Notes under the pieces: generated by a model
Seen by the model: only the letters and a program-made list of their open reading frames with translations
Told to the model about the DNA's origin: nothing
Databases searched by the model: none
Part shown: positions 30,614 through 42,316 of the stretch, in pieces
Layout: every line of letters starts with the position of its first letter
How positions within the stretch are numbered: position 1 is the first letter of the stretch
Source of the DNA: an uncultured Methanosarcinales archaeon
GTDB lineage: Archaea; Nanobdellota; Nanobdellia; Woesearchaeales; GW2011-AR9
Reading direction: 5' to 3'
NCBI GenBank assembly: GCA_964460195.1
Contig: CAYWPJ010000006.1
Coordinates: 1 to 53,945, forward strand
Length of the DNA stretch: 53,945 nucleotides
Made by a program: the position numbers and the translations under genes

Positions 30614-32875
30614 ATGCACCCAGAGGAAACAATCAAAATCATCGTCACCTTAGGCCCTTCCTGCAATAAAGAAGAAGACCTGCGGACGATCAAAGACAAA
30701 GGAGTGGATTTCGTCCGCATCAATATGTCCCATTCTTCCCTGGAAGACTTAAAATATTTCATCGGCCTGGCAAAGAAGGCCGGCCTGGCTTTCATCATCG
30801 ACACGGAAGGATCGCAGATCCGGTCCGGTGAGCTGGCTTCCGGCTCCCTTGAACTCGAGGAAAACGACGAAGTGAAGATCTACGCCGAACCGGTTGTCGG
30901 CGATAAAACTAAGCTCTCCTTAAAGCCGGGCCAGGCGGTCCGGCAGCTGGAAGAAGGCGACCTTGTTTACATTGACTTTGACACCCTGAGCTTGAGGGTT
31001 TCCGACACTTCCACCCTTAATCAGGGCTACATTCTTGCCAAAGCCATCACTAAAGGTATCATGGACAGCAACAAAGCGGTCAGCCTGGTCTGCGGAACGG
31101 AAAAAAAGGTCTCTCTGCCGACCTTGTCCGAGAAAGACTTCCAATCCATCCAGTTAGGCCTGCAGGAAGGCATCGGCTACATCGCCGCCTCTTTCATCCG
31201 CTCGGGAAAGGCCGTCGATGAAGTCAGGCAGGCGACGCAGAACACGATGAAGATCATTTCCAAGATCGAATGCATCGAGGCGCTGGAGAACCTGGATGAA
31301 ATCATCCGCAAATCTGATTACCTTCTCATCGACCGGGGAGACCTGAGCAAGGAGATCCCCGTGGAAAAGATTCCCTTCACTCAGAACATCATCATCAGGA
31401 AAGCCCGGAAGGAAGGGGTGGGTGTTTTTGTCGCCACCAACCTTCTGGAGACAATGATTGAAAAAAAGAAACCGACCCGGGCGGAAGTTCATGACATCAT
31501 GCGGACAATCGTCGACGGAGCTGCCGGGCTGACGCTGGCCGCCGAAACCGCCATCGGCAAATATCCCATGGAATGCATCAATATGCTTAACAAGCTGATT
31601 CGGCATTCCCAGCTCCTGACCCGGCAGGGAAAGAAAGCTGAACCGGTGCCGGATTGTTTCACTGAAGCTCTGGAAAAAAATAATTATCTTCTTGATCAGG
31701 AAGTCTCTTCCTCTTTGATCCCGCCCCACGGGGGCAGATTAGTCAACCGCGTTCTGAAAAAACCGCCCGAGCCGGAATCCCTCAATTCCCTGCCCCGGCT
31801 GACCCTTCCGGAAACCGCCCAGATGGATGTTGAGCAGATTGCCATAGGCGCCTACAGCCCGATTGAAGGTTTCTTAGGCAAAGAAGACCTGCAAAATGTC
31901 CTGGACAACATGCGGCTGGCCAGCGGGATTGTCTGGCCGATTCCCATTATCTTAGATGTTCCTGAGGAAGAAGCAGCGAAACTTTCCCTGGGAAAGGACG
32001 TGCTTCTGGTCGACGGAGAGAACGAAGCCATGGCCATCCTCCACCTGGAAGAAAAATATTATTTTGACCGGCAGGAGATGGCAGGAAAGATGTACGGCAC
32101 GGAAAACGACGAGCATCCCGGCGTCAGGATGATTAGGAGCCTGAACCCGGTCTTCCTGGCCGGGAAGATTGATTTGCTCCGGCGGAGGAAGGCTGAGTTC
32201 AAAGAGTATCAGCTGACTCCCCGGCAAACTCGGAGAGTTTTCGAGGAAAGAGGCTGGGCTAAAGTCGTCGGTTTCCATACCCGCAACGTCATCCACCGCA
32301 GCCATGAATTCCTCCAGCTCCGAGCCCTGGAGAAAGAGCACGGCGACGGCTTGTTTGTCCATCCCATCGTCGGGAAAAAGAAAAAAGGTGATTTCCATGC
32401 CTCTTACATCATCAAATCATATGAAATGATGAAAAAAGATTTTTATCCAAAGGACAAGGTCGTTTTCGGCACTTTCTGCAGCTATTCCCGCTACGCCGGG
32501 CCGCGGGAATCCTTATTCACCGCCCTTTGCCGGAAGAATTTCGGCTGCAGCCACTTTATTGTCGGCCGGGACCATACCGGCGTCGGCAATTTTTACCACC
32601 CTAAAGCGGCGCACACCATCTACCAGCGGTTTCCTGACTTGGGGATCAAGCCGATTTTCTTCGACCAGGTTTTTTATTCCGGGAAGCTGGACAAATATAT
32701 CCATGAAAAAGATTCCCCTGACCATCCGGAAGAGGACAAGCGGCAAATCAGCGGGACGCAGGCCAGGGAGATGCTGGAGCGGGGAGAACTGCCGCCAGCC
32801 TGGTTCATGCGCCCGGAGATCTCCCGGATGATCGTTGACAGCCTTAAGAGGGGCGAGGAGGTTTTCGTCAGATGA
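30614..32875 (+). CDS. Fusion protein: pyruvate kinase catalytic (A/B) domains + ATP sulfurylase (sulfate adenylyltransferase)
   Basis: PK motifs: IVTLGPS, RINMSHS, KIISKIECIEALENLDEI, DRGDLSKEIP, ATNLLETM, PTRAEVHDI, AAETAIGKYP. Sat motifs: PPHGGRLV, SPIEGFL, FHTRNVIHRSHE, HPIVGKKKKGDF, GRDHTGVG. The ATG at 30614 is preferred over the GTG at 30491. Confidence 0.85.
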   Translation: MHPEETIKIIVTLGPSCNKEEDLRTIKDKGVDFVRINMSHSSLEDLKYFIGLAKKAGLAFIIDTEGSQIRSGELASGSLELEENDEVKIYAEPVVGDKTKLSLKPGQAVRQLEEGDLVYIDFDTLSLRVSDTSTLNQGYILAKAITKGIMDSNKAVSLVCGTEKKVSLPTLSEKDFQSIQLGLQEGIGYIAASFIRSGKAVDEVRQATQNTMKIISKIECIEALENLDEIIRKSDYLLIDRGDLSKEIPVEKIPFTQNIIIRKARKEGVGVFVATNLLETMIEKKKPTRAEVHDIMRTIVDGAAGLTLAAETAIGKYPMECINMLNKLIRHSQLLTRQGKKAEPVPDCFTEALEKNNYLLDQEVSSSLIPPHGGRLVNRVLKKPPEPESLNSLPRLTLPETAQMDVEQIAIGAYSPIEGFLGKEDLQNVLDNMRLASGIVWPIPIILDVPEEEAAKLSLGKDVLLVDGENEAMAILHLEEKYYFDRQEMAGKMYGTENDEHPGVRMIRSLNPVFLAGKIDLLRRRKAEFKEYQLTPRQTRRVFEERGWAKVVGFHTRNVIHRSHEFLQLRALEKEHGDGLFVHPIVGKKKKGDFHASYIIKSYEMMKKDFYPKDKVVFGTFCSYSRYAGPRESLFTALCRKNFGCSHFIVGRDHTGVGNFYHPKAAHTIYQRFPDLGIKPIFFDQVFYSGKLDKYIHEKDSPDHPEEDKRQISGTQAREMLERGELPPAWFMRPEISRMIVDSLKRGEEVFVR

Positions 32876-33438
32876 AACCCCTGATTATCACCTGCGGCTT
32901 GTCCGGCTCGGGCAAGACCTTCCATTCAAAGAAACTGAAGGAAAAGCTGGCTGGTTACCGTTTGATCAACCTGGGCCAGTTCCGGGAGCAGCTGGGCATT
33001 ACTACTTATTCCCGCAAAGATACGCCTAAAATGCTGGCCCTGGCCATCGAGGAGATTGAAAAGAACCATCATCTCGGCTTCGGCTCCCTCCTCGACGCTA
33101 ATTTAAAGACCAATGACTTGAGGCAGTGCTTCTATGACCTGGCCAAATATTTAGGAACGGAAGTCCTCCTCATCGAGATGAGCTGCTCTGACGAAGCCGC
33201 CCGCCGGAGGATGGAAGAACGGGAGCAGACGACTCTGGCTGAGAACCCGAAATTGTTCTCTGTCTATCTCGAGCAGAAGAAGGTCTGGCAGGACACTTTA
33301 ATGGACTTAGAGTTGGCCGGGAATGAGCATCTGACGGTCATCAAATACAATACTGAAAGCCATTCCTTAGAATTAATTAAGGGGAATCTGGCTGGTTCTG
33401 CTCTGGTTGGGCAAATCGTGGAAGTGTTGGCTGGTTGA
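32872..33438 (+). CDS. P-loop kinase (AAA_33/APS-kinase-like fold; substrate unknown)
   Basis: Walker A is CGLSGSGKT. LLDANLKTNDLRQ resembles the DxTN motif of AAA_33 kinases. The ATG overlaps the upstream stop (ATGA at 32872-32875). Confidence 0.6.
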   Translation: MKPLIITCGLSGSGKTFHSKKLKEKLAGYRLINLGQFREQLGITTYSRKDTPKMLALAIEEIEKNHHLGFGSLLDANLKTNDLRQCFYDLAKYLGTEVLLIEMSCSDEAARRRMEEREQTTLAENPKLFSVYLEQKKVWQDTLMDLELAGNEHLTVIKYNTESHSLELIKGNLAGSALVGQIVEVLAG

Positions 33439-33561
33439 ATGATGAAAAAGCCGGCTGGCTGAGCAAGAGGTAAAAAGCATAAACGTATGCGTCGCTGTTA
33501 AGTGAGCCAAGCCGGAGGTGAGAGTGCAATGTGCCGCCTCATCCCGAAGGAGTGAGAAAAG

Positions 33562-33576
33562 TTGCCCAAAGCCCGC
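33562..33576. repeat. Inverted-repeat arm (stop-codon-proximal) of the MazG-like cassette
   Basis: TTGCCCAAAGCCCGC ends 1 nt before the stop codon (33577-33579). Its partner is at 33972..33986, 13/15 complementary. Confidence 0.7.
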
Positions 33577-33927
33577 CTATTTTTTAACAAGATTATTTTC
33601 AGGATTTTTATGATTATATTTTGCTAGAATTTCTTTTTTAACAAGATTAAACGCTTCTTCAATATCAACATCAAGTTGATTCGCAAGGCGACAAGTGCCG
33701 AAAAACAAATCTCCTATCCCATCAACAAAAATATCTTTATTTTCCTCTACAAATTTTTTGCGTTCTTCTTCTGATTTATATCTCAAATGTTGTGACATTT
33801 CAACAAGTTCTTCATGTAAATGGTCAAACTTATCAACACTTGGCACATCTTTCCAATTGTTACGCTCAGCAAAAAATTTGAGTGATTTCTGAGCTTCTTT
33901 CATTGTGGTGATTTGTTTTTCTTCCAT
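33577..33927 (-). CDS. MazG-like nucleoside triphosphate pyrophosphohydrolase (small, all-alpha)
   Basis: FAERNNW..FDHLHEELVEMSQH and GIGDLFFGTCRLANQLDVDIEEAF match the EExxE/D metal-binding helices of the MazG family. AT-rich. Confidence 0.7.
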   Translation of the reverse strand: MEEKQITTMKEAQKSLKFFAERNNWKDVPSVDKFDHLHEELVEMSQHLRYKSEEERKKFVEENKDIFVDGIGDLFFGTCRLANQLDVDIEEAFNLVKKEILAKYNHKNPENNLVKK

Positions 33928-33950
33928 CTGATTAAATTAAAATCCTAAAC

Positions 33951-33958
33951 TTTATAAA
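33951..33958 (-). promoter_or_regulatory. TATA box (TTTATAAA) for the MazG-like gene
   Basis: Centred about 27 nt upstream of the ATG at 33927 (leaderless geometry). It lies between the ORF and the distal IR arm. Confidence 0.55.
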
Positions 33959-33971
33959 CCAATTGCTTTTA

Positions 33972-33986
33972 GCGGGCGTAGGGCAA
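33972..33986. repeat. Inverted-repeat arm (promoter-distal) of the MazG-like cassette
   Basis: The reverse complement of GCGGGCGTAGGGCAA is TTGCCCTACGCCCGC, compared with TTGCCCAAAGCCCGC. Confidence 0.7.
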
Positions 33987-33999
33987 TTTCAAACAAAAG

Positions 34000-34752
34000 C
34001 TAATTCCTCTCCCGATCTTCCTTCAGCAGACTGAGGGACTGGCTGAGCAGTTTCCTCAAAAATTCTAAAAAGTTGACCAGGGAATAGGCAATTAAAGTGT
34101 AATGAGGCAGATCAAAAATTATTCCAAAAAAAAGCAGGTTCCCCAGATGCTCGACCCGGAAGAAGTCAAAGAGCCGCTGTTTCCAGTTAAACCGCCCCGT
34201 CAGCGATCCGGAGCGGAGAGCCGACTGCTGCATCAGCTCAAAAACCTTGTTTCTTTCCTCTTCGGTCTTCGAATACCAGGCCGGGTTTAGAGTAATCGCC
34301 TTGTTAAGCAGATAAAAAAGAGCGGCAGCGAAACCAAAAATCAGGTAGAGGGGGCCGAAGCGGAGGGAAGTGCCTATACCTAAGCAGACGAAGAGGAAAG
34401 GATTGTTGACATAGTGCCCCAGCTGATCAAGATATTTCGGGAAAAGCTTCTTCCGCAGCGGGCGTTGGGGATGGTGATAGCGGTAGAGTTTCCCGTCCGA
34501 CAGGTCAAGGACAAACATCAGCTGGAAAAGGACAATCCCCAGGACGAAGTAGCGGTATTCCCCGCTCAGGAAAAGCAGGGGGATAAAAAACTGGAAGATG
34601 ACCCAGAAAAAAGTCAGCTGGGTAGGAGTAACCTTCAAAAGGAGGGCTAGTTTAACAATATAATTGGCAAAGTAATCTAAAACTCTTTCATAACCCCATC
34701 TTTTAGTTTGGGTTTGTTCACGAATGGTTTTTATTGACGGAAGTTTCATCAC
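34000..34752 (-). CDS. Divergent CDP-alcohol phosphatidyltransferase-like membrane protein
   Basis: Polytopic. DLSDGKLYR corresponds to DxxDGxxAR, followed by KYLDQLGHY. It is a paralog of 36401..37234. Confidence 0.55.
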   Translation of the reverse strand: MMKLPSIKTIREQTQTKRWGYERVLDYFANYIVKLALLLKVTPTQLTFFWVIFQFFIPLLFLSGEYRYFVLGIVLFQLMFVLDLSDGKLYRYHHPQRPLRKKLFPKYLDQLGHYVNNPFLFVCLGIGTSLRFGPLYLIFGFAAALFYLLNKAITLNPAWYSKTEEERNKVFELMQQSALRSGSLTGRFNWKQRLFDFFRVEHLGNLLFFGIIFDLPHYTLIAYSLVNFLEFLRKLLSQSLSLLKEDRERN

Positions 34753-42130: not shown

Positions 42131-42134
42131 TTGG

Positions 42135-42152
42135 ACATAATTTAAATTATGT
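42135..42152. repeat. Perfect 18-bp palindrome ACATAATTTAAATTATGT
   Basis: Self-complementary over all 18 nt. It lies 5 nt outside the outer IR arm. Confidence 0.8.
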
Positions 42153-42316
42153 TGAATCCCGGATATTTTAAGGGTATAAGGCCTGAAAGGAAGGAATTTC
42201 GCATCTCGTAATCAAATAACCCCAAACTACCCATTAGTAGATTTAACGTGAACCATTGCGGGCCTCTGCGGCTCAACCACACCCAATGTTCTGGTGCACC
42301 CGCTTGTAAAGAAGAT

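Follow-up and report, generated by a model that had tools for sequence, protein, structure and literature searches.

A MazG-like gene in a Woesearchaeales genome probably lies in an integron-like cassette that is shared by DPANN archaea and CPR bacteria

Integrons and CALINs (clusters of attC sites lacking an integron integrase) have been described in archaeal metagenome-assembled genomes (MAGs), where they are mostly arrays without an integrase, and a cross-domain spread of integron cassettes has been proposed (Ghaly et al. 2022, PMC9668308). Plasmids of Acinetobacter are known to carry Xer-dependent dif modules. Odd gene trees have pointed to gene exchange between ultra-small bacteria of the candidate phyla radiation (CPR) and ultra-small DPANN archaea, which live together in groundwater, with no mechanism attached. 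In this study we analysed a stretch of 53,945 nucleotides (nt) from an uncultured Woesearchaeales archaeon (assembly GCA_964460195.1, contig CAYWPJ010000006.1; hereafter the window), in which a small MazG-like gene lies between two convergent genes and is flanked by a 15-nt inverted repeat. The initial annotation took the two repeat arms as the bounds of a mobile unit inserted into a pre-existing host palindrome. Our results suggest instead that 33497-33993 is probably a single, self-contained gene cassette of about 0.5 kb, belonging to an integron-like system that uses an Xer-type (XerA-like) tyrosine recombinase and not IntI. The feature is akin to integron or dif-module-like cassettes, and its interest rests on the sharing across domains. 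In the following, G000 is the window's own genome, C-numbers are contigs of G000, L-numbers are homologous loci and G-numbers are relatives.

A homologous-protein search found 664 homologues of the MazG-like protein, and the best 120 showed 75-93% amino acid (aa) identity and carried the source names Woesearchaeota, Nanoarchaeia, Aenigmatarchaeota, Patescibacteria and Parcubacteria. The gene was also placed in Saccharibacteria, Berkelbacteria and other CPR in unrelated contexts, and the 37 genome loci and 80 metagenome loci had differing neighbourhoods. Within the order of the window's own genome, matches at E <= 0.001 were present in 15 of 60 relatives (one per genus), three of them good (57-65% identity). 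At the nucleotide level, the open reading frame (ORF) of the window shared 87.7% identity with the Saccharibacteria copy L027 and 90.9% with the Woesearchaeota copy L024. Since MAG labels can be wrong, the host domain was checked on the contigs themselves. The window contig carries the archaeal markers GatD, FEN-1 and TYW2, and its genome encodes L21e, which a control found in archaea only. The L023 contig carries a thermosome gene, L21e and Rpb4; bL19 and a Mur ligase were found on the L027 contig, and a sigma-70 factor on the L030 contig.

A phylogeny of the MazG-like protein had been proposed as a check by the initial annotation. The maximum-likelihood tree of 35 copies implies that the label changed between archaeal and bacterial no fewer than 8 times, and it was poorly resolved, as expected from 116 residues. 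In the window the ORF is an AT-rich island, with a GC content of 0.30 versus about 0.50 in the flanks and a genome mean of 0.453; a cassette GC that is foreign to the hosts supports the idea of a mobile cargo. Taken together, these comparisons reveal an evidently mobile unit that occurs in unrelated contexts in DPANN archaea and CPR bacteria. The description of the gene as mobile cargo between host genes thus held up, on the high identity in unrelated contexts of two domains and on the foreign GC. The further idea of virus cargo did not: no close relative of the cargo was found among the IMG/VR viral contigs, so that it is unsupported for this subfamily.

Many copies of the gene are plain and have no flanking features, such as the one in the His_Phos-MazG-NUDIX operon of L021. 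Another subset shares DNA beyond the ORF (L024, L025, L061, L027, L028, L029, L030, L047, L063-65, L109, L140, L159 and L166). The parts common to this subset are the upstream arm, TTTATAAAGTTCAGGATTTTTATTTAATCAT up to the ATG, the downstream arm right after the stop codon and a GC-rich stretch of 50-75 nt. Copies from archaea and from bacteria alike conserve TTTATAAAGTTCAGGATTTTTATTTAATCAT ahead of the ATG, and its box TTTATAAAG could serve as a TATA box in archaea and as a -10 element in bacteria. The GC-rich 3' segment shares the motif TGCRCTYTCRC...CGCTCA with the CPR copies, and no consensus RNA fold was found for this segment.

The shared sequence continues past both arms. On the 5' side the homology ends 11 nt outside the upstream arm, where the majority of CPR copies have G|TTATACGACA, L061 has G|TTATGTGCAA and L159 has G|TTAAGTGAAA. 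The 3' limit of the homology lies some 65 nt past the downstream arm, at ...AAC, in the reverse complement of the cassette's own 5' end (TCGTATAAC in CPR, GCACATAAC in L061 and TCACTTAAC in the window). In 10 loci the homology break falls at G|TT; the sequence with which L159 begins, GTTAAGT, fits GTTRRRY, and L061 ends in GTTATGT/ACATAAC. Because the homology runs past the arms on both sides, the arms are internal to the mobile unit and do not bound it as first supposed. Judged from these boundaries, the true ends are evidently inverted half-sites with AAC/GTT at the crossover side, which together make a dif/attC-like core site.

Several other explanations of the repeats were rejected. A transposon or miniature inverted-repeat transposable element (MITE) with terminal inverted repeats does not fit, as the arms are not terminal and no direct repeat (target-site duplication) around the unit was seen in the flanking sequence of the window. 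The arms are also not a dispersed repeat or MITE: the arm 15-mer had 4 matches at <=3 mismatches in the window versus 2.5 expected, and no further copy of it was found in the rest of the genome. GTTAAGT as a genome-wide mark of cassettes was rejected too, with 152 occurrences versus 213 expected and with the motif GTTAAGTAAAGTT... also preceding core genes. The pattern GTTAAGTA(A/G)AGTT(C/G)TTAAGT followed by a GC block, for example ATGCACCCCCGCC, was seen upstream of core genes and is not cassette-specific (G000 C2:6680, C31:4185, C1:1528 and C13:31144; one of them precedes an SRP54-like gene).

Some further observations were made on the surroundings of such cassettes. The sequence AGCGACGAAG occurs 12 times in the genome versus 2.1 expected, in a GC-rich element ...GGAGCNN-AGCGACGAAG... 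that adjoins cassette junctions (window 23703 and 41442; G000 C9:16370, C29:577, C1:135622 and C24:~4560). AGCGAC stands directly 3' of the MazG cassette half-site in the window and in L024. In L025 (CAYUKJ010000188.1), a MazG cassette of 32% GC with its downstream arm lies in flanks of 64% GC, and the upstream arm and promoter are replaced. In L065 (Ga0209521_10155952), an IS200/IS605-type TnpA gene starts after residue 114 of the MazG cassette ORF and replaces the downstream arm.

Recombinase genes adjoin the cassette in relatives. In two contigs, one per domain, the cassette is preceded by a dif-like site and a divergent recombinase gene of the XerA type. The Saccharibacteria contig of L027 (214 kb) has a gene for a 270-aa tyrosine recombinase at 1992-2804 on the minus strand, opposite to the cassette; 110 nt from this gene lies the dif-like site AATTCGCATAA-AAGCGAG-TTATACGACA, followed by the cassette and then by core genes. 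The Woesearchaeota contig of L019/L024 has a gene for a 269-aa recombinase (minus strand), a palindromic site and a plus-strand array of racemase, 53-aa, NYN and MazG genes. Both recombinases pass the XerA model NF040815 (240.6 bits for L027 and 238.2 bits for L019; cut-off 220) and are far below the XerC and XerD cut-offs, and they match the IntI model in two pieces that skip the IntI-specific region. Together with the three recombinases of G000, they match the IntI model TIGR02249 in two stretches with 186-224 bits (cut-off 265), and XerA NF040815 is the best model for all five. The L027 and L019 recombinases share 46% identity, and their identity to the G000 C48 copy is 45.5%. The gene at L027:1992-2804 is a bacterial recombinase that passes the archaeal XerA equivalog of NCBIfam. 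One XerA-like gene of G000 (C1:32071-32547) has an aberrant C-terminus without the ...TTxIYTH motif of the catalytic Tyr and may be decayed.

The scaffolding around the cargo was also compared. In L019, the racemase cassette is equipped with perfect nested arms of its own (17 nt and 15 nt) around promoter and ORF, and it carries the GC-rich element of the MazG cassette (90% identity over 31 nt to L063/64). After this cassette stands a 74-nt hairpin (L019:2714-2787), 89% identical to L047:1280-1353 of Berkelbacteria, which may be either an attC-like site or an ORF-less mini-cassette. Because the GC-rich element and the 74-nt hairpin are shared, the scaffolding, besides the cargo, is common to both domains. 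Dif-like sites in the relatives have the form TTCGTATAA-AAATGAG-TTATACGACA and similar. Further ORFs clamped by arms stand beside dif-like palindromes in G000 (C54:3586, C24:4500 and window 42131), and a perfect 9-6-9 palindrome, TGGACATAA-CTCTTA-TTATGTCCA, lies at C24:9158-9181, about 300 nt upstream of a XerA-like gene.

A related site, TTGGACATAA-TTTAAA-TTATGTTGAAT, was seen at window 42131-42157, right after another clamped cassette. L047:818-1877 (VMGK01000018.1) contains three copies of a 107-nt ORF-less element with the inverted ends GTTGTGCAA.../...CGCACAAC, and these copies interrupt two different MazG-type ORFs of a single array, which suggests that recombination has taken place at AAC pseudo-sites within genes.

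On the basis of these data, we propose the following model for the cassette. Read 5' to 3' on the minus strand, it would consist of a 5' core half-site G|TTAAGTGAAA, the upstream arm, a TATA/-10-like promoter with a short or absent leader, the MazG-like ORF, the downstream arm at the stop codon, a GC-rich segment of about 53 nt and the 3' half-site TCACTTAAC. A XerA-like recombinase would act on these core sites and excise the cassette as a circle. The joined ends of the circle would give a palindromic 9-6-9 core, TCACTTAAC-N6-GTTAAGTGA or TCGTATAA-N6-TTATACGA, and the circle could reinsert at pseudo sites or at sites resembling its own. The clamp arms, private to each cassette, may pair in single-stranded or extruded DNA and join the cassette's own half-sites, so that the cassette moves as a unit. 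More tentatively, CPR and DPANN may share one XerA/dif-like cassette platform that trades self-promoted genes, with the clamps as its pairing device, a kind of "inside-out attC" with the gene in the loop; we put this forward as a possibility that we would not bet on.

The features of the window copy are listed in Table 1. The sequences and positions of the arms and the location between convergent genes were as first described, apart from the distance of the upstream arm to the ATG (44 nt, initially 45).

Table 1. Features of the candidate cassette in the window and of its flanks
Feature	Position	Strand	Basis or remark
Whole cassette (probable)	33497-33993	minus	homology boundaries versus copies in other contexts
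3' terminal core half-site, minus-strand GGCTCACTTAAC	33497..33508	minus	reverse complement of the 5' end of sister cassette L159 (GTTAAGTGAAA)
GC-rich generic 3' segment, with a UUCG-loop hairpin inside	33509..33561	minus	between downstream arm and half-site; conserved with L024, L025, L061
Downstream clamp arm TTGCCCAAAGCCCGC (minus GCGGGC-TTT-GGGCAA)	33562..33576	minus	touches stop codon
ORF of MazG-like all-alpha nucleoside triphosphate (NTP) pyrophosphohydrolase, 116 aa (cargo)	33577..33927	minus	sequence/profile similarity
Putative own promoter and leader of the cassette	33928..33971	minus	TTTATAAA box at 33951-33958, 23 nt before ATG; promoter function inferred
Upstream clamp arm GCGGGCGTAGGGCAA (minus TTGCCC-TAC-GCCCGC)	33972..33986	minus	44 nt upstream of ATG
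Decayed 5' terminal core half-site, minus TTTGAAA, G before it at 33994	33987..33993	minus	versus L159, L024
Junction outside cassette: AGCGAC, hairpin GCATAC-GTTT-ATGC, T run; terminator-like	33472..33496	minus	sequence; AGCGAC and CATACG also 3' of L024 copy
Host flank: P-loop (AAA_33) kinase-like gene	32872..33438	plus	convergent with cassette
Host flank: membrane-protein gene	34000..34752	minus	co-directional with cargo; stop at 34000-34002

The arms of the window copy are paired at 13 of 15 positions, as 6 bp, a 3x3 mismatch and 6 bp, and a repeat search extended the inverted repeat to 18 nt at 83% complementarity. The downstream arm is present and covarying in L024, L061, L027, L030, L063 and L166. 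At the 3' end, ACTTAAC (33497-33503, minus) fits the R'' consensus RYYYAAC of attC. At the 5' end, where 6 nt separate the boundary (33993/33994) from the stop codon of the membrane-protein gene, the half-site reads G|TT---TGAAA versus GTTAAGTGAAA in the sisters, that is, 3 nt of the intact form G|TTAAGTGAAA are missing. The sisters compared were L159 (GTTAAGTGAAATTG...) and L024 (GTTTAAGTGAAATTGCCC), and the homology of L024 ends at this half-site. A whole-genome search found the window cassette to be the sole copy in its genome. Since the 5' half-site has lost 3 nt and no recombinase gene is on the contig, the window copy is probably immobilised; it probably arose by a lone insertion at a poor secondary site, after which it decayed and became fixed. 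A search of 33000-34500 against Rfam gave matches at chance level only, and one of them was a weak C/D-box small-RNA-like match (sR44, 12.3 bits, E = 5.6) at window 33410-33464, over the end of the kinase gene.

Covariation of the ends and arms was tested on four segments of nine cassettes aligned by hand, with 21 pairs. Paired cells made up 86.8% versus 80.3% after shuffling (reached in 0/500) and 29-39% with the partner slid, and 9 of the 21 pairs had changed on both sides versus 4.1 expected (0/500). The covariation was spread over three helices, one formed by the terminal half-sites and two by the outer and inner stems of the clamp. In the outer clamp of L061, for example, three base pairs are swapped, from TTGCCC/GGGCAA to TCCGCC/GGCGGA. 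These results support, and do not prove, that the ends and clamp arms are maintained as inverted repeats by selection, because the set is small and its members are related. The clamps vary in sequence between cassettes, keep the 3x3 unpaired centre and are longer where AT-rich, which argues for a structural and not sequence-specific role. We favour, as a guess, that the clamps draw the two half-sites of their own cassette close to each other. When a model of the circle junction was made from the intact L061 ends, it folded as single-stranded DNA into a clamp stem, a GC-rich hairpin and a half-site hairpin (z = -3.1).

Three other explanations of the arms were weighed. One is a chance inverted repeat beside a horizontally acquired gene. 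The statistics against shuffled flanks, which the initial annotation had advised, showed that the observed score was reached in just 3 of 3000 dinucleotide-preserving shuffles of the two flanks, and the arm pair ranks 9th among the 3016 ORFs scanned in the genome. Non-complementary controls of the whole genome also gave 15 ORFs at a score of >=16 and 3 at >=18, that is, several equally good ORF-flanking repeats per genome, and further 15-nt repeats with 93% complementarity lie within the same 900 nt. From this genome the repeat is therefore suggestive only. What establishes it as real is that homologous cassettes keep both arms with compensatory changes, so that we give chance hardly any credence. 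The model of the initial annotation, in which the MazG gene split a GC-rich palindrome serving as the shared terminator of the convergent host genes, draws on the GC-rich hairpin that the joined arms would give between these genes. But the gene is flanked by these arms in unrelated contexts too (L024, L061, L027, L030, L063 and L166), the arms accompany the cassette into other genomes, where they covary with it, and the cassette homology reaches beyond both of them. We consider this model barely tenable. It is less far-fetched, and in our view still improbable, that the arms act in RNA, where a read-through transcript containing both arms would fold into a long-range stem that encloses the ORF and serves the processing, stability or insulation of the cassette message. 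The membrane-protein gene, which runs in the same direction, ends 13 nt ahead of the upstream arm with no terminator between them, which makes the initial statement that the distal arm is not transcribed uncertain, and in several cassettes the arms bracket exactly the promoter and ORF. Among the single-change cells, 11 become T:G wobbles on the sense strand versus 4 C:A cells that are wobbles on the opposite strand only; these counts do not decide the folding strand. Against a role in RNA, the putative cassette promoter lies inside the stem, so that a transcript started there would not contain the upstream arm; bacteria and archaea both retain the feature, although they process RNA with different enzymes; and no Rfam family matches. 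A role of the arms at the DNA level, as initially proposed, is plausible.

The more serious competitor is an ordinary integron cassette of the solo or CALIN type, in which the GC-rich segment and ACTTAAC are the start of a degenerate attC and IntI acts in trans. The G|TT crossover and the ends, which fit the attC R-box consensus (ACTTAAC = RYYYAAC; GTTAAGT = GTTRRRY), agree with it, as does the finding that archaeal integrons are mostly arrays without IntI (PMC9668308). The junctions of L047, L019, L028 and L029 fold as R''-L''-loop-L'-R' (z = -3.6 to -4.5). On the other hand, the array-adjacent recombinases of L027 and L019 and all three of G000 are XerA-type and lack the IntI-specific domain, and L027, L140, L030, L063 and L061 have plain cores of two arms around 6/7 nt, with neither L boxes nor loop. 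The cassette also has a putative promoter of its own, and the window copy has neither an L''/L' pair nor an R' downstream of ACTTAAC. An array beside an integrase gene and attI was not found in the window and was found in the relatives L027 and L019. Since the junctions of some relatives read as classical folded attC, this explanation keeps some weight, and we regard it as rather unlikely.

A XerA-served cassette has its own difficulties. Some of the relatives' junctions carry a hairpin of 74-95 nt that is equally readable as a classical folded attC, so that the dif-type and attC-type readings are not separated. No recombinase gene is on the window contig, and the three XerA-like genes of the genome sit on C24, C48 and C1. 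Neither junction in the window has a recognisable partner half-site, and the cassette-side half-site alone is visible. Neither a circular form of the cassette nor an excision junction was seen. An empty site was not found in the relatives, which are all of different genera and in which the kinase/membrane-gene junction is not syntenic; in G029 and G028 the orthologue of the membrane protein and its synteny with a flippase are kept, with neither the kinase nor the MazG gene adjoining, and a protein look-up gave no record of the exact kinase protein elsewhere. These points, together with the small and related covariation set, weigh against the XerA-type cassette that we prefer.

The MazG-like identity of the cargo was borne out by sequence and profile comparison, although the Pfam MazG models remained below their gathering scores (13.6-14.3 bits). 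A single-sequence search of the PDB matched YpjD (2gta, 4e-6) and also 5ie9, and a profile of 43 sequences matched YpjD 2gta at 1.4e-7 over residues 7-107 and 5ie9 at 2e-7. PHROG 715, "MazG-like", matched the cargo at 0.0037, and NCBIfam agrees. The AlphaFold2 model was all-helical and weak (predicted local distance difference test, pLDDT, 62), and Foldseek with this weak model gave nothing significant (best match the pyrophosphatase AF1178, E = 1.5). Residues E39, E40, E43, D69, G70, G72 and D73 are invariant in 43 homologues. The E39-E40-x-x-E43 motif is thus kept, and in the second acidic motif, D69-G70-x-G72-D73, the canonical Glu is replaced by Gly and an Asp stands one residue earlier. 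The family is compact, with 63 clusters at 50% identity and E <= 1e-3 among 1.8 billion representatives. In comparison with the bacterial copy L027, 31 of 117 third codon positions differed and 12 of 234 first and second positions. Because third-position differences far exceed the others, we infer purifying selection on a working protein, presumably a nucleotide pyrophosphohydrolase. The cargo resembles YpjD-type small MazG-like enzymes (B. subtilis YpjD, PDB 2gta; 5ie9), which are also all-alpha proteins of about 110 aa with EExxE and a GD in a later helix, and it aligns with them over the full length. It differs from them in being just ~25-30% identical and below the Pfam gathering scores, and in having Gly70, preceded by the invariant Asp69, for the Glu of the second ExxD motif.

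In conclusion, contigs verified as archaeal and as bacterial have the whole unit of gene, promoter, arms, GC-rich segment and half-sites in common, at about 88-91% nucleotide identity, and in both domains it adjoins recombinases of one family, which points to a concrete vehicle for cross-domain exchange. It may explain why most archaeal cassette arrays seem to be without an integron integrase. New here are the bacterial side, that is, the same cassette, scaffolds and recombinase family in CPR, and the example of a solitary, decaying insertion. In a literature search, no publication turned up that describes a cassette platform of the XerA type in CPR or DPANN. Annotators of these genomes should read GC-rich inverted repeats that closely flank small AT-rich genes as marks of cassettes and not as terminators or transposon ends.

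Of the known systems, integrons with IntI, attI and attC are alike in having single-gene units head to tail beside a divergent tyrosine recombinase gene, G|TT boundaries, inverted AAC/GTT core boxes and ends that are conserved as structure over sequence. Unlike in integrons, the adjacent recombinase here is XerA-type without the IntI-specific domain, many cores are of a simple double-stranded type with a 6-7-nt spacer, and each cassette has its own promoter. The private clamp pair that encloses promoter and ORF and the generic GC-rich segment are both absent from the attC model. The dif modules of Acinetobacter plasmids (pdif modules) and other Xer-exploiting elements are likewise small modules with 28-bp-type sites, and they rely on a Xer-family recombinase, as the cassettes here probably do. 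The arm pattern of dif is ...CATAA / TTATG..., and the arms of the cassette sites, ...CGTATAA / TTATAC..., are near to it. In contrast to pdif modules, the cassettes here are chromosomal in CPR and DPANN, and the recombinase gene heads the array as an integron integrase gene does. Their arms are near-palindromic and cassette-specific, and the single-gene units carry clamp arms, a GC-rich segment and a promoter of their own.

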